Below are positions 2,556-60,235 of a stretch of DNA of 64,000 bases, piece after piece (positions within the stretch are counted from its first letter, which is position 1; the number at the start of each line of letters is the position of its first letter). A program made the translations under genes and the position numbers. The notes beneath the pieces were generated by a model. That model was given only the letters and a program-made list of their open reading frames with translations. It was not told the origin of the DNA and did not search any database. This stretch comes from an uncultured Candidatus Saccharibacteria bacterium (GTDB lineage Bacteria > Patescibacteriota > Minisyncoccia > Phycocordibacterales > UBA9973): assembly GCA_964634365.1 (NCBI GenBank), contig CAZWJU010000002.1:167150-231149 (forward strand). The letters run 5' to 3'.

Positions 2556-3542
2556 TCAATAGCCAATATCTTCGTATAAAGTAGAGAAGACAACAGAATA
2601 GAACATCTGTTTATACGATCCCCCTAGTTCCAAATGAGCCTCTCGCTCGAACGAGCCTCTTCTGATGTATTCCAATCCATATGCATCACTCCAGGTCTGA
2701 TTGTCAGCATAAGACAAGAAAGATCGTAACGACACAAGCCTAGAGTTGAACATTCCATATATATATTTTGACAGAGAAGTTGCGGGTTTATCCTTGAACT
2801 GCTTTGCATGCCCTAGCTCTTCTAAAAAAAGATCAGGATTCCATGTATAACAATAATATCTATTGTTTTTCAAAGAATCTGTATTCCTTTCAAGTAATTT
2901 AGCTAAAAATATTCTATTGTTTAGTGGATCGTAGAAAGCATCGGCGTATTGCATTGGAAAAGAGTTTGAATTTGGGCAGTATTTCAATTTTGGCGCACCA
3001 AGTGAGAGATATACCTTCCATATGGTTTGATAGGTTGCTGTACTATTCAGACTATCTGGAGCAAAGTAAAATCTTTTTTCTATATCAATACCTTTACCCA
3101 GAAGATGTATATCAAATTCTTGATATGACATAGATTCAATTTCTTCTATAACACTTTGTACACTGTCTCTTATAGAAACTCTAGTACGAAAAGCTGTTTC
3201 AAGTCTACTTAATGTATCTTGATAAAATTGCATCACTTTCCACTCTCTGCTTATATCCTCTTTTCCAGCATAATAATTTACAATCATATCTGTTTCTTTG
3301 TCGCCACTTGTATAATTTGAAGCGTCTGGGGAAAGCAAGCTAAATGTTTCAACAGATAAATCATACTCCCCTCTCTCAAACAAAAAACCATACAAGGCGA
3401 TCGAGATCCAAACCGCAAAAAATAATGCAGTGAAGACTAGCGACGTACGCCAAAAGATTCTATAAATCCTGTTGGCTAGAGCACTCCAAAAAAGTAATTT
3501 CGGGAAATTAGATTTATAATTCCAAAAGCTTTTATATTCCAT
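2556..3542 (-). CDS. Hypothetical membrane-anchored protein (N-terminal TM helix, large extracytoplasmic domain)
   Basis: 328-aa ORF, hydrophobic N-terminal segment LVFTALFFAVWISIALYGFLF; terminator hairpin (atccaccatttaaaatggtggat) right after stop at 2529-2555; no family recognised. Confidence 0.45.
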   Translation of the reverse strand: MEYKSFWNYKSNFPKLLFWSALANRIYRIFWRTSLVFTALFFAVWISIALYGFLFERGEYDLSVETFSLLSPDASNYTSGDKETDMIVNYYAGKEDISREWKVMQFYQDTLSRLETAFRTRVSIRDSVQSVIEEIESMSYQEFDIHLLGKGIDIEKRFYFAPDSLNSTATYQTIWKVYLSLGAPKLKYCPNSNSFPMQYADAFYDPLNNRIFLAKLLERNTDSLKNNRYYCYTWNPDLFLEELGHAKQFKDKPATSLSKYIYGMFNSRLVSLRSFLSYADNQTWSDAYGLEYIRRGSFEREAHLELGGSYKQMFYSVVFSTLYEDIGY

Positions 3543-3622
3543 CGAACAAGTATTTGATTCTTTTTACTCCTATAAAAAGAAAATTGCAAGCAATAAAAAA
3601 ACCACTTTTGTAAGTGGTTTTT

Positions 3623-3979
3623 TTATTTATTTTCGTTCGGATTGTGTGGCGGGTTTGAGTTTGGCTCTTTACTTTGTTCCCCGGGGATAATTCTTTGATC
3701 ATCTTCTTTTGGATTACCCTCTGGGTCAATTTCTTCTGGAAAATCTTCTTCTGGATTTTCTTGTTCAATTTTCTTTTTTTCTTCCAAAAGTCTTTTCTTT
3801 ATATTTAAAATAGATTCTTGTTCTTTTTGAAAATCACCTCTTGGTTTATCACGCCGAGCATTGAAAAGCTCTTCTCCTTCTGGAGGATTTTCTGGCTTAA
3901 AATCACTTCGATTCTTTATACCTTTATCTTTATCATCTCCCCCATTTCTCCAAGGCGGAATCCACTCTTTAAAATTCAT
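3623..3979 (-). CDS. Hypothetical low-complexity charged protein (K/E/D/P-rich)
   Basis: 118-aa ORF followed by intrinsic terminator at 3598-3622 (aaccacttttgtaagtggtt); overlapping 78-aa ORF in other frame judged less likely. Confidence 0.35.
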   Translation of the reverse strand: MNFKEWIPPWRNGGDDKDKGIKNRSDFKPENPPEGEELFNARRDKPRGDFQKEQESILNIKKRLLEEKKKIEQENPEEDFPEEIDPEGNPKEDDQRIIPGEQSKEPNSNPPHNPNENK

Positions 3980-4058
3980 AAATAGATTATATCAGAAAAA
4001 TGAATAATCGCTTTTTCGCAAATACCATTTGGGTATTTGGATATATTTTTAATGCTGG

Positions 4059-4253
4059 GTCGGGGTGCCGGGTGAGCCGTGTGAGGGAACCCTGTGGGTG
4101 GACGGCGCAAGACCTTTTGAGATATCTTTACGAATATTTGAAGTAAAGTATCCAAAAGGTGTACAGGTTCTGTAAGAACTCGAACCCAGAGTCGCCTCTA
4201 TAATGATCCTCGAATACCGTTTATATACCTGGAGGTTGTTCTTAAAAGTTTTG
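4059..4253 (-). repeat. tRNA-Pro trailer element: degenerate direct copy of tRNA-Pro 3' half (aggcgactctgggttcgagttc) plus exact 14-nt copy of the tRNA 3' end (gtcggggtgccggg at 4059-4072), with a 70% GC segment in between
   Basis: Direct sequence comparison with tRNA-Pro at 4254-4326; spurious 114-aa ORF 4049..4393 overlies it. Confidence 0.6.
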
Positions 4254-4326
4254 TCGGGGTGCCGGGATTCGAACCCGGAGTCGCCTGTTCCCAAAACAGG
4301 AATGTTAGCCGTTACACTACACCCCG
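4254..4326 (-). tRNA. tRNA-Pro (anticodon TGG), no encoded CCA
   Basis: Reverse complement folds as cggggtg/caccccg acceptor, anticodon stem cctgt/acagg with loop tttggga, T-arm ccggg-ttcgaat-cccgg; 73 nt. Confidence 0.8.
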
Positions 4327-4418
4327 ACAAAACTTTCAAAATACATAACTTACACAAAACTAGCTTGTAGGGCTCAGTATAGCCGAGATACATATAATCT
4401 TCAAGTTTTTTATAAATT

Positions 4419-4595
4419 GTGCGGGATAGGAGAATCGGTCACAAATAATTTTTATTACATAAAATTTTCGCGACCCCGACTCAGCGACAAGCACTCGCTT
4501 CGCTCGTCTTGTATACCGCCTCCGTCTTTCGATTCCCCTACCGCACTAAAACACAAAAGCCCGAACACTAACATGTCCGAACTTTGTGTTTTATG
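4419..4595 (-). repeat. tRNA-Gly(GCC) trailer element: hairpin, inverted tRNA-3'-like fragment (gtctttcgattcccctaccgcac on plus strand at 4520-4545), GAGTCGGGGTCGC core (plus strand 4470-4484 as reverse complement), ending in a 19-nt direct copy of the tRNA 3' end (4419-4437)
   Basis: gtgcgggataggagaatcg occurs at 4419-4437 and again as the genuine tRNA 3' end at 4596-4614. Confidence 0.6.
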
Positions 4596-4666
4596 TGCGG
4601 GATAGGAGAATCGAACTCCTGTCTCATCCTTGGCAAGGACGTGTTCTACCACTAAACCAATCCCGC
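4596..4666 (-). tRNA. tRNA-Gly (anticodon GCC), no encoded CCA
   Basis: Reverse complement: gcgggat acceptor, anticodon loop ttgccaa, T-arm ggagttcgattctcc, 3' atcccgc + discriminator A. Confidence 0.75.
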
Positions 4667-4715
4667 ATATTCTTTGTACCTTGCGATATTAACATTGAAA
4701 TCGATTTTGTGCAAA

Positions 4716-4746
4716 AGAAAAACCCTGAAAATCAGGGTTTAGTTTT
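4716..4746. terminator. Intrinsic terminator hairpin aaaccctga-aaa-tcagggttt with flanking T-run
   Basis: Perfect 9-bp inverted repeat, immediately 3' of 4748..5170(-). Confidence 0.6.
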
Positions 4747-4747
4747 T

Positions 4748-5170
4748 TTAGGCGAAGGCCTCTTCGTTTGCGAGCATAAAGAGCCTCTCTACCCACTCGG
4801 TGTATTTACCGAGTATAAAAAAGGTCAGGAGCGCAAGCACGAGCTCGATTGCCACACACTGCGTGTGTGGAAGCATTTCACGCTTGTACTTGGATGTAAG
4901 CTCTGAGCGAATGTTTGCTGCAACCTCACAAAGAGGATTATTTTCCCTTCTGTGCATTACTGCGCTCACAGCTTTTGAAAAATGAAACGAATAGTGAAAA
5001 TCGTTTTTAGAAACCCCCTCCAGAGCTTCTTCAATCCCCTTGGCCAAGGCTTTAAATTCCTTGTCATGATTTGCATCGCCAAGATTTTTGATTTCAACGA
5101 TTTTGTTTATCAGAAACGTCGTGAGCTCCTGAAAATGCCGTTTCCCGGCTTCTTGTTTTTCTACTCGCAT
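4748..5170 (-). CDS. Hypothetical protein
   Basis: 140-aa ORF with terminator right after stop; no recognisable family. Confidence 0.4.
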   Translation of the reverse strand: MRVEKQEAGKRHFQELTTFLINKIVEIKNLGDANHDKEFKALAKGIEEALEGVSKNDFHYSFHFSKAVSAVMHRRENNPLCEVAANIRSELTSKYKREMLPHTQCVAIELVLALLTFFILGKYTEWVERLFMLANEEAFA

Positions 5171-5273
5171 AAAGTGGTTTTGGGTTATTTAATTTGTTTA
5201 AAGAACATATAAAATATTACACCTGTGTTTTTATTTTGACAAGTATTTTTATTTGTTGAGTTTTGTAAAATAG

Positions 5274-5648
5274 CTAAATTATATTTTCAATAACCTTAAC
5301 TTTGGCTTTTTTGTTTACATTATCCAAAAGGACACATACCAAGTCTATTTGCCACTCTATGTCCTTTATATTCTTCTCATGTAAATATGTTGATATTGTC
5401 CTTTGTAATTTGACCAATTTAAATTGATTCATGTTTTCTTCTGGTCTTATTGTAGAATTGAAGCTCATAGACTTAACTTCTATAAAATAAATCGCTTTAT
5501 TCTTTTTTGCGATAATATCTATTTCGCCAAGTCTTCTTGTGTAATTTCTTTCAATTATTTCAAAACCATGTTTCATGAGAAACATACAAGCGATCTCCTC
5601 GCCCAATTCTCCTTTCTTTTGAGATTTTGAAGTAAAAACCTTAGGCAT
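5274..5648 (-). CDS. yraN: YraN-family (UPF0102) predicted endonuclease
   Basis: GELGEEIACMFLMKHGFEIIERNYTRRLGEIDIIAKKNKAIYFIEVKS matches the YraN core (G.E.A...L...G..I..RN....GEID.IA.....F.EVK). Confidence 0.7.
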   Translation of the reverse strand: MPKVFTSKSQKKGELGEEIACMFLMKHGFEIIERNYTRRLGEIDIIAKKNKAIYFIEVKSMSFNSTIRPEENMNQFKLVKLQRTISTYLHEKNIKDIEWQIDLVCVLLDNVNKKAKVKVIENII

Positions 5649-5768
5649 GTTTCATATGAAACTAATAATTTATGTAAAAATGATTATATTTTAGTTACAC
5701 GTGCAACTTTTCTAATAAAAAACCACTTGTTTCATGTGTAACTATTTAAATATGTTTCACGTGAAACA
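5647..5768. promoter_or_regulatory. Array of four related palindromic sites (half-site GTTTCA / GTTACA): gtttcatatgaaac, gttacacgtgcaac, gtttcatgtgtaac, atgtttcacgtgaaacat; the first overlaps the yraN start codon
   Basis: Perfect 14-bp and 18-bp palindromes read directly; spacing about 40, 35 and 25 bp in the AT-rich leader between yraN and the tRNA cluster. Confidence 0.45.
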
Positions 5769-5992
5769 TATTTTTATATAGGACATGAGTTTTCCACCTA
5801 AAAACTACTAAAATTCTACAAACCATTGAAAAATAAGGATATTTTATTGAAAAAAGACTGTGGATAAATACACAACTTGATGTCCTTTATAAACAATATA
5901 CACGCCTTTATCCACATATCATTGAAAAATAAAGTTTTTTTGTGTATAAAAGGACATTTAAACCTGCTGAACAACAGATACTTTACCTAAAT

Positions 5993-6117
5993 GTGCATCC
6001 GGAGGGATTCGAATATTACATATTCAGGTATTTTTCGCTTTTGTTGCACAAAAGATCGAAAAATCTTTCGAATACCCCCCCCCGCAAGCAAAGAAGTTTG
6101 CTTGCTCGTATGCACCA
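5993..6117 (-). pseudogene. Interrupted tRNA-like locus: 3' end shares ccggagggattcgaa with the neighbouring tRNA-Arg; T-loop appears split by a ~62-nt insertion with duplicated tattcgaa, preceded by a run of 9 G and a gcaagca/tgcttgc stem
   Basis: Reverse complement ...gcggggggggg tattcgaa agattttt...atgtaata ttcgaatccctccggatgcac; acceptor pairs gcatacg/cggatgc with one mismatch. Either an intron-containing tRNA or a decayed duplicate. Confidence 0.3.
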
Positions 6118-6120
6118 ATG

Positions 6121-6192
6121 TGCACCCGGAGGGATTCGAACCCCCAACAACGGTTCCGAAGACCGGTATGATATCCATTTCACTACGGGTGC
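6121..6192 (-). tRNA. tRNA-Arg (anticodon TCG read from loop cttcgga), no encoded CCA
   Basis: Reverse complement gcacccg-ta-gtga..tcat-a-ccggt-cttcgga-accgt-tgtt-ggggg-ttcgaat-ccctc-cgggtgc-a; 72 nt; one 27-43 mismatch. Confidence 0.6.
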
Positions 6193-6270
6193 AGTAAAAT
6201 CAGTATAAGCTTTATATAATAAATTGCAAAATAAGGTTTTCCTGATATAATCCATTTTATATTAATAATC

Positions 6271-6341
6271 GCGGGATTAGTTAAATGGTATAACTTCAGT
6301 TTTCCAAACTGAAATCAAGGGTTCGATTCCCTTATCCCGCA
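6271..6341 (+). tRNA. tRNA-Gly (anticodon TCC; alternative register would give CCA), no encoded CCA
   Basis: gcgggat-ta-gtta-aatggta-taac-t-tcagt-tttccaa-actga-aatc-aaggg-ttcgatt-ccctt-atcccgc-a; shares acceptor stem with tRNA-Gly(GCC). Confidence 0.65.
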
Positions 6342-6470
6342 CAAATAATTTTATAGGGATAGTGAGCAAACTGCTTTGCTCACGGAAGGGAATCGAAAGA
6401 CTTTTCCATACAAGCGAAGCGAGACGGAAAAGTACCTGGCTATGTAATAGCCGATTCCCTTATCCCGCAC
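6342..6470 (+). repeat. tRNA-Gly(TCC) trailer element: inverted partial copy of the tRNA 3' end with embedded hairpin (gtgagcaaaCTGCtttgctcac), GCGAAGCGAG motif, ending with a 20-nt direct copy of the tRNA 3' end (6451-6470) 10 nt upstream of the cca start
   Basis: ccgattcccttatcccgcac at 6451-6470 versus tRNA 3' end ttcgattcccttatcccgcac at 6321-6341; gggaatcgaaagac and atacaagcgaagcgag shared with the Gly(GCC) trailer. Confidence 0.6.
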
Positions 6471-6480
6471 AAAATGCTCT

Positions 6481-7959
6481 ATGAGCAAAACACACGAAAT
6501 TAAAAAAGAATCCATACCTACTGAGATATTGGATATATTGAAAACTCTTGAAAGTTCTGGGTTTGAGGCTTTTATCGTAGGTGGCTGTGTTCGTGACTTA
6601 CTACTAAATCGTAAACCAAAAGATTGGGATATAACAACAAATGCAATACCAGAAGAAATAATACCTTTGTATGAAAAAACAGTTTACGAAAATACCTTTG
6701 GTACCGTTGCTGTAATACTAGAAGATAGTGAAGATAAAACACTTAGACAAATAGAGATAACTCCTTATAGAACAGAAGGGAAGTATTCTGACAAAAGACA
6801 CCCGGATACAGTGTCCTTTAGTAAAGATATAAAAGATGATTTAGCCAGAAGAGACTTTACGGTAAATGCTCTTGCCTACAACCCCTCTAGAAGTCAATTA
6901 ATTGACCTTTTTGAGGGTATAAAGGACATAGAGGTCAAAACTATAAGGACAGTCGGCAATCCTTCTGACAGGTTCTCTGAAGACGCTTTACGCATGATCA
7001 GGGCGATTCGTTTTTCTTGTGAACTTGGTTTTGCTGTGGATAACGAAACACTTCAGGCAATTGTGGAAAACGCACAAAATATTTCAGAAATTTCTACAGA
7101 AAGAATTAGAGACGAATTTGTAAAAATAATAATGTCCAAAGAGCCGGTGATAGGTGTTGCTATGCTCCAAAAAACTGGGATGCTTAAATACATAATCCCA
7201 GAACTAGAAGAGGGTATAGGGTGTGAACAGGGAGGTGCGCACAAATACAATGTATATGAGCACTTACTCCAGGCACTCCAACACTCTGCTGACAAAAACT
7301 GGCCACTAGAGATCAGACTCTCAGCGCTCTTTCACGATATCGGTAAGCCAAAAACTCGAAGAAAGGGAGTCAAGAAGGCGTATACATTCTATGGGCACGA
7401 AGTTGTTGGAGCAAGGATGGTTAAGGTGATTATGGAGAGACTAAAGTTCCCGAAAGATACAAGCGAGCTAGTGACAAAGCTAGTAAGACAACACATGTTC
7501 TTCTCTGACACAGAACAAATATCACTTTCTGCTGTACGAAGAATTGTGCGGAATGTAGGAGTGGAAAATATTTGGACACTTATGAATGTGCGTGAGTGTG
7601 ATCGTGTGGGAATGGCAAAAGTAGAAGCTCCATATCGATTGCGTAAATATCATGCAATGATCGAGGAGGTTCTGCGTGATCCGATATCTGTTTCGCAACT
7701 TGTGGTAGATGGAAATATTTTGATGGGTGAACTCAATGTGAAGCCCGGACCTCGCATGGGCTGGATACTAAACTCACTTCTAGAAGAAGTGCTCGATGAC
7801 CCAGCAAAAAATACTCGCGAGTATCTGGATAAAAGAGTAGGGGAACTGAACGAGTTGGAAGATAAAAGTTTGAAATTGTTAGCTGACAAAGCTAAGCAAA
7901 CAAAAGATGAACTAGAGGAAAAAGAGATCGAGGAATTACACAAGAAGCATAGAGTATAA
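6481..7959 (+). CDS. cca: CCA-adding tRNA nucleotidyltransferase (class II pol-beta NTase + HD domain)
   Basis: N-terminal GGCVRDLLL..KDWDITT nucleotidyltransferase motif, RDFTVNA, C-terminal HD (FHDIGKP); needed because none of the tRNA genes encode CCA. Confidence 0.8.
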   Translation: MSKTHEIKKESIPTEILDILKTLESSGFEAFIVGGCVRDLLLNRKPKDWDITTNAIPEEIIPLYEKTVYENTFGTVAVILEDSEDKTLRQIEITPYRTEGKYSDKRHPDTVSFSKDIKDDLARRDFTVNALAYNPSRSQLIDLFEGIKDIEVKTIRTVGNPSDRFSEDALRMIRAIRFSCELGFAVDNETLQAIVENAQNISEISTERIRDEFVKIIMSKEPVIGVAMLQKTGMLKYIIPELEEGIGCEQGGAHKYNVYEHLLQALQHSADKNWPLEIRLSALFHDIGKPKTRRKGVKKAYTFYGHEVVGARMVKVIMERLKFPKDTSELVTKLVRQHMFFSDTEQISLSAVRRIVRNVGVENIWTLMNVRECDRVGMAKVEAPYRLRKYHAMIEEVLRDPISVSQLVVDGNILMGELNVKPGPRMGWILNSLLEEVLDDPAKNTREYLDKRVGELNELEDKSLKLLADKAKQTKDELEEKEIEELHKKHRV

Positions 7960-11796: not shown

Positions 11797-12561
11797 TTAC
11801 TCAATAGAATCCCACATAAATTGAAATAGCGTCAGGAACGTATTTGCGATATCAGTGTTTTCAATAATCGTGGTGACCATAGCATCTTTGTTTTTAACAG
11901 AAGTTATACTAACCTTGCCTTTGTAAATCAAGATGTAAGCTGGCAAGACAAATTTATCTTTTGGGATTATTTTACGAGTTATATTACGCTCCATATCATG
12001 CGAATACACAACACTAGACATATGCTCTAGTTTTGGAGTTAAGACGTACGACCTAATACCAGCTTGCGATTGTTTCTTTAGTTGTTCGCTTATGAGTGTG
12101 CGAAGCTCTTTGTTTTCGTGGTCGTAGAGAGATCTGAAAACAAATACTTCTTTTACGTTTTTCAAAATATCTGAATAGGTTTCTCTTATACCATCGAAAC
12201 CTTCAAAGAATTTTACATGCGGACGAGAATGTAGAGTGTTGAAGTCGCTTACAAGATGTTCTATTACTTTTCCATAGGCTAGGCTCGCTTCATCTGCGAG
12301 AAGTTTTTTCTCTTCAGCAACTCTTTTGATACTTTCTGGATGTTTTGCTCTCCATAACGCAACCTTTCCTATGTTTTCTACTTTTTCACACAAGCCGATA
12401 GCAGTGAGTTGGTCTAGCACATAGTAAGTAAGCTCTCTACCTACTCCAGCATTTTTAGAAATATTACGAACAGGTAAAAGAGGGGACGAGAGGAGCACTT
12501 CATATATAAGAGCCTGCTCTCGGGTTAATCCTATGCGAATTAGTTCATTTGTGTAGTTCAT
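11797..12561 (-). CDS. TrmB-family transcriptional regulator
   Basis: N-terminus IRIGLTREQALIYEVLLSSP...ISKNAGVGRELTYYVLDQLTAIGL is the same wHTH architecture as 1002..1772. Confidence 0.55.
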   Translation of the reverse strand: MNYTNELIRIGLTREQALIYEVLLSSPLLPVRNISKNAGVGRELTYYVLDQLTAIGLCEKVENIGKVALWRAKHPESIKRVAEEKKLLADEASLAYGKVIEHLVSDFNTLHSRPHVKFFEGFDGIRETYSDILKNVKEVFVFRSLYDHENKELRTLISEQLKKQSQAGIRSYVLTPKLEHMSSVVYSHDMERNITRKIIPKDKFVLPAYILIYKGKVSITSVKNKDAMVTTIIENTDIANTFLTLFQFMWDSIE

Positions 12562-27985: not shown

Positions 27986-28194
27986 TGTTAATAACTGTTT
28001 AAAACGTGTAGATAAAAATATGATAAATAAATTAAAAACTCAATTTATTTTTATAAACACAAGATTAAACATAAAAATTATATTTTAAATATGATAAATA
28101 AATTAAAAATAACTTTATATATCAAGATTAAATATAGATATCCACATATCCACAGGGCTAATATAAGTATTTAATTAAATAAAAAGAAAATACT
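27986..28194. promoter_or_regulatory. oriC candidate: AT-rich dnaA-dnaN spacer with two tandem DnaA-box-like 9-mers (ATATCCACA at 28138-28155) and a 22-bp direct repeat AATATGATAAATAAATTAAAAA x2 (28018-28040, 28089-28111)
   Basis: Read directly from sequence; canonical position between dnaA and dnaN. Confidence 0.6.
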
Positions 28195-29292
28195 ATGAAT
28201 ATAAATACTACTGCAAAAAAAATAAAACAAGCTATAAACTTTACAGAAAAGATAACTGGTAAAAATCTAACATTACCTATTCTAAGTTCTATTCTCATTA
28301 TAGCTTCAGGTAAAACTCTTAAATTTAGATCAACAAACCTAAATCTAGGTATAGAAGTTGATATACCAGTAAAAGTAGTGAAAGACGGTGTTGTGGCTGT
28401 AAGAGGGGACGTTTTATCTCAAATATTTTCAACAATACAAGACAATGAAGATATAGAACTAAAACAAGAAAATGATAACTTATTGATAGTAACTAAAAAC
28501 AATCAGCTGTTAATAAAATCTAATTCTTATGAAGATTTTCCAACAATACCAGTTGTTTCTGGTGATAAACATATATTGAATTCAAAAAAAATAGTAGAAG
28601 GTATAAAATCAGTAGTTTATAGCTGTTCTATATCAGAAATAAAACCAGAAATGGCTAGTGTTTACATATATTCTGATGATGGAAATCTAGTTTTTGTAGC
28701 TACAGATTCATTTAGACTTGCAGAGAAAAAAATCAAATCAAAACATAGTACAGATTTTTCACCAATATTGATCCCTTTTAAAAATATAAATGAAATATTA
28801 AGGATATTAGAATCAACCTCTGAAGATATAGAGTGTGTAACCAGTAAAAATCAAATATCTTTCATGTTTGATGGTATATACATAACATCAAGGTTAATAG
28901 ATGGTGTTTTCCCAGATTATAAACAAATAATACCTAAAAATTTTACAACCGAAGTTGTTTTACTAAGACAAGATTTTTTAAATGCTTTAAAAATATCTAA
29001 TATATTTTCAGATAAATTTAATCAAATAACTTTCAATATAGACCCAAAAAGTAAAACATGTGAATTAAACGCTAGAAACAATGATATAGGGGAAAATAAA
29101 ACAAAAATTGACGCAACAATAGAAGGTGAACCAATTTCAATGAGCTTCAACTACAAGTATATTATCGATTGTTTTCAATCTATAAATCAAGATAGTCTAA
29201 CTTTAAAATTTAACGGCTCAAACAAACCGCTAATCATAAAAGGTGGTAGTGATCAAACATTTATATATTTAGTTATGCCTATGAATAGATAA
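28195..29292 (+). CDS. dnaN: DNA polymerase III beta sliding clamp
   Basis: 365 aa, three-domain clamp pattern; position after dnaA. Confidence 0.9.
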   Translation: MNINTTAKKIKQAINFTEKITGKNLTLPILSSILIIASGKTLKFRSTNLNLGIEVDIPVKVVKDGVVAVRGDVLSQIFSTIQDNEDIELKQENDNLLIVTKNNQLLIKSNSYEDFPTIPVVSGDKHILNSKKIVEGIKSVVYSCSISEIKPEMASVYIYSDDGNLVFVATDSFRLAEKKIKSKHSTDFSPILIPFKNINEILRILESTSEDIECVTSKNQISFMFDGIYITSRLIDGVFPDYKQIIPKNFTTEVVLLRQDFLNALKISNIFSDKFNQITFNIDPKSKTCELNARNNDIGENKTKIDATIEGEPISMSFNYKYIIDCFQSINQDSLTLKFNGSNKPLIIKGGSDQTFIYLVMPMNR

Positions 29293-46930: not shown

Positions 46931-47003
46931 CCTCCCGTAGCTCAGTCGGTAGAGCAGCTCCCTTTTAAGGAGAGGGTCGTAGGTTCGATTCCTACCGGGA
47001 GGA
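46931..47003 (+). tRNA. tRNA-Lys (anticodon TTT), no encoded CCA
   Basis: cctcccg-ta-gctc-agtcggta-gagc-a-gctcc-cttttaa-ggaga-gggtc-gtagg-ttcgatt-cctac-cgggagg-a. Confidence 0.7.
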
Positions 47004-47180
47004 CAAGGTCGAAAAAGTGGACTGCTCCACTTTTGAGTACACTTGTCCTAGACGGAAACATGTTTCGTTAGCAGACGAAACAGTTGAGTCGGGGTCGCAG
47101 AAAAATACGAGCGGCGGCGAGTATTTTATCTGTGACGACACATTCACTCTTAAATAAGGAAAGATTCCTACCAAGATAAT
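47004..47180 (+). repeat. tRNA-Lys trailer element: hairpin aaaagtggaCTGCtccactttt, core GAGTCGGGGTCGC (47086-47098) ...ACGAGCGGCGGCGAGTA..TGTGACGACA, ending with a 10-nt copy of the tRNA 3' region (gattcctacc, 47163-47172)
   Basis: Aligned by eye with the element after tRNA-Arg(GCG) (53146-53300) and after tRNA-Gly(GCC). Confidence 0.55.
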
Positions 47181-58652: not shown

Positions 58653-59438
58653 ATGGATAAAAGAAAAGAAATTCTAATAGAGCTTGGACTTGGCAACCAT
58701 GAGGCACTCGTATACAGTGCTCTCTTGGAAGAGTCTTCTTGCGGTGCAACAAAACTTTCTAAAAAGGTAGGGCTAGCGCGAAGCAGTGTCTATACAACCC
58801 TTTCTGGTCTTATAAGTAAGGGTCTAGTGGGCGAGAAGAAGAGTGGTAGTACAACTGAATTTAAGGCAGGCTCAATTGAGGCATTAGAAACATATCTTGA
58901 AAAACAAAAAGCCAATTCTATAAGAAAATTAAATATATTATCTAGTTCAAAAAGCCTCTTAAAAATTGAAAAGATCGAACTAGATGAAAGTAAGCCCGAA
59001 ATAATTACTTTCTCAGGTGTAGATGGTCTCAAGCGTATTTACTTACAAATGCTTCGAGATGCAAAATCAGGAGATGAGCTTTTAATGATACGTGATGAAT
59101 TTGTATGGAATAGTAAATGGAGATTTATTTTTGAGCCACAGTGGCATATACGTGTAAGAAAAATCAGAAAAGAAAAAAATATTAAAGCAAAATTACTTGT
59201 GAACAACTCTAAGATCGAAAAATCTAAACAAAATTTTTATAAATCACGCAGGAGTACAACATTTAGATTTTTATCAAAAGATTTATGTTTGGAAAATTAT
59301 GCTGAATATATAATTGGTAATACTATGTGCGTACTATCCACGGAAAAAGATAATCCAGTAGGAATTTTTATCCGAAACAAGACTATGGCTAAAAATTCCG
59401 CTAGAATTTTTGAAAATATCTGGAAAAATTCTAAATAG
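58653..59438 (+). CDS. TrmB-family transcriptional regulator
   Basis: ILIELGLGNHEALVYSALLEESSCGATKLSKKVGLARSSVYTTLSGLISKGLV wHTH. Confidence 0.55.
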   Translation: MDKRKEILIELGLGNHEALVYSALLEESSCGATKLSKKVGLARSSVYTTLSGLISKGLVGEKKSGSTTEFKAGSIEALETYLEKQKANSIRKLNILSSSKSLLKIEKIELDESKPEIITFSGVDGLKRIYLQMLRDAKSGDELLMIRDEFVWNSKWRFIFEPQWHIRVRKIRKEKNIKAKLLVNNSKIEKSKQNFYKSRRSTTFRFLSKDLCLENYAEYIIGNTMCVLSTEKDNPVGIFIRNKTMAKNSARIFENIWKNSK

Positions 59439-59440
59439 TT

Positions 59441-60235
59441 TTATTTTGCATGGGGTTTGGATGCACCCCAGAGGCCTTCGAAAACTGCACGCATTGTGTT
59501 TGCGTGCTCAGCTGAAGATATAAGGACTGCGTAGCACTCTTTCATAGAAGATACATACAAAGTAGAGTTGTCGAATATAAATATAGTAGTACTGAATTTG
59601 TCCTTCATAACACTCGGAAGTATTTGTACATCTGCAGCTTTTTCATAATATTTTTTAAAAATAGATTTCTCTATCTCACGTTCCCAGAGATTGCGTGTAT
59701 GGATATTGCGCTTTATTCTTTCCTCTACGAAACTTTTTACAAACTCCCCGCCGATATCCCAAAAAAAGTTTTTTGATGGTGCTATACAAAATATCTCCTT
59801 TTCTTTTACATACATTGTATCCATCACGACACGTTTGATAGCCTCTCTCCCTTCAAAGAATGAAACTTGAGGTTTTGTATTTTTGTCACTTTGTTTTTTT
59901 GACAGTAGAGGGGCAAGTTCTCCGATTTTTTCTGTGAGCATCATTGCTTCACTCTCTCGTTCGCGAGCTATAGCTACGAGACGTTCTGTGGGGGAGAGTG
60001 TAAAACCAGAATCATTTTCTTTTTTTGATTTTGAGATCAAACCTCTTTTTTCAAGAGAAGAAAGCGCATAGTAGACTGTTGGGCGCTTCATCTTGGTCAC
60101 CTTCAGTAAATCTCTGGCGCTGGTAGAACCGGCAACCATACTCAAATACACGGTAGTTTCGGACTCCGACAGACCAAGTTCTTTTAGATATTTTTCTGGG
60201 TCAATCATAGTTGTATAACGGTTATTATACAGCAT
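59441..60235 (-). CDS. TrmB-family transcriptional regulator
   Basis: LKELGLSESETTVYLSMVAGSTSARDLLKVTKMKRPTVYYALSSLEKRGLI wHTH; convergent with the other paralog. Confidence 0.55.
   Translation of the reverse strand: MLYNNRYTTMIDPEKYLKELGLSESETTVYLSMVAGSTSARDLLKVTKMKRPTVYYALSSLEKRGLISKSKKENDSGFTLSPTERLVAIARERESEAMMLTEKIGELAPLLSKKQSDKNTKPQVSFFEGREAIKRVVMDTMYVKEKEIFCIAPSKNFFWDIGGEFVKSFVEERIKRNIHTRNLWEREIEKSIFKKYYEKAADVQILPSVMKDKFSTTIFIFDNSTLYVSSMKECYAVLISSAEHANTMRAVFEGLWGASKPHAK

Follow-up and report, generated by a model that had tools for sequence, protein, structure and literature searches.

The DNA analysed here, a 64-kb stretch referred to as the window, contains a yraN gene whose 5' end and leader carry five related sites, designated P0 to P4 (Table 1). 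Judged from its sequence, the host is a Paceibacteria-like Patescibacterium (CPR), and homologs of YraN are found in Paceibacteria, Nomurabacteria and Minisyncoccia (Patescibacteria, CPR). The ORFs of the window look intact under code 11. ARAGORN called a tRNA-Stop with anticodon tta at 46931-47004. According to the Rfam tRNA alignment, the anticodon loop is CUUUUAA and the anticodon UUU (tRNA-Lys), and a register artefact probably explains the suppressor call.

Table 1. Coordinates of the yraN-associated sites and of neighbouring and origin-related features in the window.
Feature	Position	Strand	Remarks
yraN (UPF0102, predicted PD-(D/E)xK-type nuclease)	5274..5648	-	Pfam PF02021, E = 9e-20
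P0, intragenic parS-like site GTTTCATGAGAAAC	5570..5583	.	inside yraN; sense strand reads GTTTCTCATGAAAC
P1, parS-like site GTTTCATATGAAAC	5649..5662	.	abuts yraN start codon (complement 5646-5648)
P2, parS variant GTTACACGTGCAAC	5694..5707	.	one mismatch to 14-bp core with N
P3, parS variant GTTTCATGTGTAAC	5729..5742	.	yraN sense strand reads GTTACACATGAAAC
P4, consensus parS TGTTTCACGTGAAACA	5753..5768	.	16/16 match to published consensus TGTTNCACGTGAAACA
P4 14-bp core GTTTCACGTGAAAC	5754-5767		
Conserved GTCCTATA(T/A)A block	5775..5784	-	directly upstream of P4
Conserved DnaA-box block	5859..5949	-	perfect DnaA boxes
Block element TTATACACA	5941-5949		
Block element TGTGGATAA	5908-5916		sense reading
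Block element TTTATAAAGGACA	5881-5892		
Second perfect DnaA box TTATCCACA	5859-5867		
tRNA-Arg	6120-6192	-	nearest tRNA gene
tRNA-Gly(tcc)	6271-6342		
dnaA	26495-27985	+	Pfam Bac_DnaA
dnaA-dnaN spacer	27986-28194		extremely AT-rich; near-consensus DnaA boxes at 28007, 28138, 28146
dnaN	28195-29292	+	Pfam DNA_pol3_beta

P1 to P4 are present where the earlier note had described four palindromic operator-like sites, to which P0 within yraN is added as a fifth. P4 is embedded in a perfect palindrome of 26 bp (5748-5773). The starts of P1, P2, P3 and P4 are 45, 35 and 25 bp apart, and P1 to P3 have two to three mismatches to the 16-mer. P3 differs at one position from GTTNCACGTGAAAC, and P1 has two central mismatches, with CATATG for CACGTG. 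P0 spans yraN codons 22-27, starting 65 nt past the A of the ATG, and has two mismatches to the 14-bp core with N. When up to two mismatches to the 14-mer were allowed, the 64 kb yielded five matches, all of them inside 5570-5767 (200 bp). First-order Markov simulations gave a null expectation of 0.26 matches per window, and two matches within 200 bp occurred in none of 300 simulations; as simulated matches were rare and never paired within this distance, a chance origin of the cluster is excluded.

The tRNA-Arg gene lies upstream of and co-directional with yraN, and only tRNA-Gly(tcc) and cca are divergent from it. The 'divergent tRNA cluster' which the earlier note considered a possible second target of regulation thus applies to the latter two and fails for the nearest tRNA gene. 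The 3' end of tRNA-Arg(tcg) and its flank (6117-6140) recur as a 24-nt stretch with 96% identity at 5990-6013, 127 bp downstream of the real gene. Between the two lie a C8 run and one GCAAGCAAA...TTTGCTTGC hairpin, and the copy resembles a scar left by integration or rearrangement at this tRNA gene. Furthermore, tRNA gene order and orientation around yraN differ between the window and one of the relatives described below (L002).

The GTCCTATAAA block just upstream of P4 is a likely candidate for the -10 element of the yraN promoter, and the corresponding GTCCTATA(T/A)A block occurs 17-22 bp before the main parS in five other loci (L010, L008, L118, L084 and L116). Scans for sigma-70 promoters and terminators gave nothing convincing at the sites. 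Two further motifs were considered and rejected: TGAAACATG as a general start-codon context, with only three occurrences in 64 kb, and TTATAAARGACA as a general promoter motif, with ten matches against 2.5 expected. Five of these ten (5360-6928) are no more than about 1.2 kb from the cluster, so the latter motif is local and not general.

Identity and genomic context of the sites

A full-text literature string search with GTTTCACGTGAAAC returned only ParB/parS literature, and the pan-bacterial parS centromere, tGTTNCACGTGAAACa, has this sequence as its core. LexA, PrfA/Crp, CopY/BlaI (TACAnnTGTA), Rex and PadR motifs had been considered as well and were dropped once the string search identified parS. 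The chromosomal parS consensus TGTTNCACGTGAAACA, given in a review table for B. subtilis and C. glutamicum, is in use from Bacillus to Caulobacter, and parS is listed there as GTTTCACGTGAAAC for M. smegmatis and as TGTTTCACGTGAAACA for H. neptunium (PMC7022226). The sites of the window are the same 16-bp inverted repeat as the chromosomal parS of B. subtilis (Spo0J), Caulobacter crescentus, Hyphomonas neptunium and Mycobacterium smegmatis; P4 is identical to the H. neptunium site, and its core to that of M. smegmatis. Proximity to the origin, the presence of several copies and degeneracy at the N position are also shared with these systems. In contrast to them, the window packs four to five sites into 200 bp with a spacing of 25-79 bp, and the cluster is fixed at the 5' end of yraN instead of lying beside parAB.

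The dnaA and dnaN genes lie 20.7 kb from P4, which makes the cluster origin-proximal, as expected of parS; the window also encodes yidC and jag. The spacer between dnaA and dnaN contains a duplicated ATGATAAATAAATTAAAAA unit, and its DnaA boxes comprise one TGTAGATAA and two copies of ATATCCACA that overlap by one base. By its sequence this spacer is the probable oriC and, at 22 kb from the cluster, a better candidate than the DnaA boxes near P4, of which two are perfect and one has a single mismatch, at 92-195 bp from P4. A GC skew scan of the window did not locate the origin; skew tracks gene orientation.

The pattern GTTTCACGTGAAAC-N8-16-GTTACA was scanned in 185,579 species-representative genomes and gave at least 120 matches, 120 of which were listed. 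The 8-kb slice includes parA and/or parB in 47 of the 120 matches listed, all of them outside the CPR, and the pattern thus marks ParABS loci in ordinary bacteria. By comparison, yraN is present in 20 of the 120 matches listed, all labelled CPR or without a label. The two gene sets never occurred together among the matches listed, and in the slices none of the 20 yraN-linked loci has parAB beside the cluster.

In CPR loci the sites are located at yraN and are usually flanked by cca and tRNA genes on their opposite side; the parS-yraN arrangement was also found in Saccharibacteria-labelled loci. Those CPR loci that derive from the pattern have a perfect core by construction, and the distance from their consensus site to the yraN ATG downstream is 4-120 bp. 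The commonest start-to-start distance of adjacent sites in CPR loci is 23-27 bp, and some loci contain 6-12 sites. Altogether, 28 CPR loci (243 kb) contain 146 sites, where about one would be expected. One Parcubacteria contig (JAZDPK010000010.1; locus L111, 509-1190) carries a tandem array of 12 parS cores, ten perfect and two with one mismatch, repeated about every 62 bp. The array resembles F sopC-type plasmid centromeres but uses the chromosomal parS sequence.

Conservation, half-site variation and alternative explanations

For an unbiased sample, relatives were fetched on YraN identity alone (56-98%). The closest (L004, 98%) retains all sites, and its P2 is a perfect palindrome, GTTACACGTGTAAC. 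At 72-73% identity, L002, L005 and L006 contain ATGTTTCACGTGAAACAT, followed by GTTACACATGAAAC at 24 bp and at 59 bp, and a further copy abuts the yraN ATG. L007 (79%), in which the contig ends within the locus, has only the two ATG-proximal sites. More distant relatives contain GTTTCACGTGAAAC and GTTACACATGTAAC (L008, 65-66%), GTTTCACGTGAAAC and GTTACATGTGTAAC (L009, 63%), three sites (L010, 63%) or one-mismatch versions (L132, 56%). The 14-bp core of P4 is perfect in L002, L008, L009 and L010 and one base off in L132. In L004, L002, L008, L009, L010 and L132, the main site is followed by another after 24-28 bp; this second site is the P3 sequence itself, 24-25 bp past the main site, in L002 and L010, and of the GTTACA type, 26-28 bp past it, in L009 and L008. 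The 35-bp spacing of P2 and P3 is the same in L002. L002/L005/L006 and L007 also have a parS-like site immediately next to the ATG; in L010 and L008 such a site is 3-12 bp away from the ATG. The sites are thus conserved upstream of yraN orthologs, and the objection that the earlier note held against its own reading, a tract without such conservation, does not apply.

Several relatives encode an extra gene between the cluster and yraN, which is a 201-aa SAM methyltransferase in L002 (3382-3987), L005 and L006 and a NUDIX hydrolase in L008 (4499-4996). The methyltransferase ATG is directly preceded by a parS-like site, which is the positional counterpart of P2, and another such site precedes the yraN ATG (by 12 bp in L008). 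The slot behaves, as far as its sequence indicates, like a gene cassette bounded by parS-like sites. In the window it comprises only 31 bp (5663-5693), the gene having been lost or never present.

The intragenic site is conserved as well: 11 other lineages, with YraN identities as low as 47%, have the P0 sequence GTTTCTCATGAAAC at an unchanged offset of +65. Leu24 is encoded by CTC in 12 of 18 lineages and by CTT in the remaining six, and never by TTA, TTG, CTA or CTG, which together make up 64% of leucine codon usage in the genome, compared with 8% for CTC. Likewise, codon 22 ends in G in 16 of 18 lineages while the amino acid varies (M, R, K, T, V); where it is lysine, all seven codons are AAG, in a genome that uses AAA for 80% of its lysines. 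This pattern at both codons indicates that selection acts on the DNA itself, and the 5' end of yraN thus appears to be part of the site cluster.

Half-site variation was assessed in the 117 non-perfect sites among the 146 sites of the 28 CPR loci. Changes at pair 4/11 were one-sided in 60 cases and compensated in seven, and those at the central pair 7/8 one-sided in 57 and compensated in ten. The half-site derived in this way reads G-T-T-(T>A>C)-C-A-(C>T), and its variable position corresponds to the N of the published consensus. Such mostly one-sided changes are typical of two half-sites read by a dimeric protein and not of a conserved RNA stem. The dimeric regulator proposed in the earlier note accordingly holds up in part: the sites appear to fit a dimeric helix-turn-helix protein, but the regulator, which the note regarded as unknown, is not, as the motif is the canonical ParB-binding parS.

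Three other explanations for the sites were considered. The earlier note pointed to TrmB-type regulators, and the window indeed encodes four TrmB-family helix-turn-helix paralogs of about 255-264 aa (1002-1772, 11797-12561, 58653-59438 and 59441-60235), two of which are neighbours in a convergent, tail-to-tail arrangement. An operator array of a dedicated transcription factor, such as one of these paralogs, that represses yraN could account for sites that overlap the yraN leader and start codon and are kept upstream of yraN orthologs, and one TrmB-family gene lies about 3.5 kb off in both the window and L002. However, nothing points to TrmB, and no link between the paralogs and the palindromes was found. 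TrmB-family genes are absent from the flanks of L008, L009 and L132, with none consistently adjacent, and known TrmB operators (TACT-N7-8-GAGTA; TATCAC-N5-GTGATA) look different from the motif. Moreover, the motif is identical to the universal parS, which in ordinary bacteria of other phyla is found beside parAB, and a private motif is unlikely to be identical across Paceibacteria-like genomes, Saccharibacteria-labelled genomes and Firmicutes. With neither a regulon-private motif nor a regulator gene linked across relatives, we consider a dedicated operator array very improbable.

Only slightly less improbable is that P4 alone functions as parS and that P0 to P3 are decaying duplicates or chance half-site relics. 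These four sites do have one to two mismatches in the 14-bp core, and P3, P1 and P0 depart from the central CACGTG, but relics would hardly account for a second site kept 24-28 bp past the main site down to 63% YraN identity, for P0 being kept at synonymous positions in 18 lineages, or for the large excess of sites in CPR loci over expectation. Least credible of all are RNA or DNA hairpins, either as a terminator after the upstream tRNA-Arg or as structures of the yraN 5'-UTR. The perfect palindrome around P4 is followed by a T-rich run on the + strand, and the sites do lie in the probable yraN leader; yet compensatory changes are few, and the commonest variants, for example GTTACACATGAAAC, break pairing. 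In addition, the scan for terminators (a GC-rich stem with a U-run) found none in 5649-5800, and Rfam identified only tRNAs in 3500-7000.

We conclude that P4 and its variants P3, P2, P1 and P0 in all likelihood form a multi-site chromosomal centromere with one consensus parS. The sites match the parS repeat, occur in the 64 kb in few copies and above chance expectation, are clustered, conserved and close to the origin, and vary between half-sites in the manner of protein-binding sites. This places a known type of element at the locus and replaces the reading of an unknown regulator with a known system.

The DnaA-box block and the search for ParB

Upstream of the cluster, the conserved DnaA-box block has the layout TGTGGATAA-N~16-TTTATAAAAGACA, with 17 bp between the DnaA box and TATAAA; in many cases an inverted arm, GTCCTTTATACACA, comes before it. 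Besides the window, the block was identified in L002 (3108-3198), L008, L009, L010, L132 and most pattern-derived CPR loci. In most CPR loci the main parS is preceded, at 118-162 bp, by the TGTGGATAA DnaA box in perfect form or with one mismatch; the distance is 85 bp in L113, and the box was not found in L047, L119 and L129. The block may function as a DnaA-controlled promoter or as a DnaA-titrating site or box cluster, and together with parS it seems, from its distribution, to constitute a module characteristic of CPR. This region of the window also contains a 42-nt direct repeat (76% identical) with a period of 96 bp (5815-5856 vs. 5911-5952), which includes CATTGAAAAATAA; one of its copies adjoins a perfect DnaA box.

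No ParA or ParB was identified in the 64-kb window by Pfam searches of 60 window ORFs. Likewise, an HMM built from 41 ParB sequences found no ParB in six-frame ORFs of the window and the 28 CPR loci (about 250 kb), and tblastn with B. subtilis Spo0J and Soj queries found neither ParB nor ParA. A metagenome scan with a ParB alignment gave no CPR-like locus among the best 80. ParB is also not mentioned in the supplements of the Minisyncoccus paper or in the main text of the Parcubacteria paper. The cultured Saccharibacterium Southlakia epibionticum, by the account of its genome and Tn-seq data, encodes adjacent ParA (SEML1_0183) and ParB (SEML1_0184; PF02195 and PF17762) proteins, and both genes were scored as essential or growth-defective (PMC10633639); for the superphylum, this is the sole direct evidence that was found. 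As Saccharibacteria-labelled loci have the same parS-yraN arrangement, we infer that ParB is very likely encoded in this genome too.

Predicted function and implications for Patescibacteria

By analogy with the ParABS literature, ParB dimers would recognise every 16-bp inverted repeat via their helix-turn-helix domains, nucleating at P4, the presumed high-affinity site, and more weakly at the variants. P1 and P0 may be bound weakly or not at all, given that each has two mismatches in the CACGTG core read by ParB. Binding to parS would lead to CTP-dependent closure of the ParB clamp, and closed clamps would slide to flanking DNA and form a partition complex in the neighbourhood of yraN and the tRNA genes. 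This complex would then be moved by ParA and/or load SMC on the origin region 21 kb away. Chromosome segregation and SMC loading, and not dedicated repression of yraN, would thus be the primary role of the sites. Since they span the leader from the likely -10 element to the ATG, the ATG itself and the first 30 codons, ParB occupancy would probably lower yraN transcription as a by-product.

Effects and arrangements of this kind have precedents. In Streptococcus pneumoniae, parS sites lie near promoters and ParB represses adjacent genes, and the F plasmid centromere sopC consists of 12 tandem 43-bp repeats. As in sopC, multiple closely spaced ParB sites are predicted here to make up one centromere, but they are irregularly spaced variants of chromosomal parS and not identical tandem units. 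In Pseudomonas aeruginosa, ParB at parS3/parS4 next to promoters has been described to repress adjacent genes (PMC5521831), and binding of ParB to degenerate and half-parS sites, as inferred here for the variants, has been reported (PMC5521831, PMC5961200, PMC10419367). Compared with P. aeruginosa and S. pneumoniae, the sites of the window cover the leader, start codon and first codons of a single gene, and the arrangement at yraN is conserved across a whole superphylum, while its regulatory effect is putative.

In the literature searched, no description of parS or ParB biology in Patescibacteria was found, and the parS-yraN-DnaA-box arrangement in CPR is accordingly a small, possibly unreported finding. 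Its minor and possibly new elements are the CPR placement at yraN, the tight multi-site layout, the intragenic P0 and the linked DnaA-box block. A more far-reaching reading, which we regard as conceivable though doubtful, is that the centromere of Patescibacteria is a fixed composite module, separate from parAB and firmly joined to the start of yraN, which would comprise the promoter-like DnaA-box block, the consensus parS with a site 24-28 bp off and the intragenic P0. If so, occupancy by ParB, and perhaps by DnaA, would gate the YraN nuclease and keep its expression in step with replication and segregation; alternatively, YraN itself would act at the centromere or origin.

The multi-site parS reading marks an origin-proximal centromere in an uncultured Paceibacteria-like genome, and such a mark may help to orient and close CPR assemblies and to locate their origins. 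For YraN/UPF0102, a family of unknown function, it provides the hypothesis of a link to chromosome segregation or replication.
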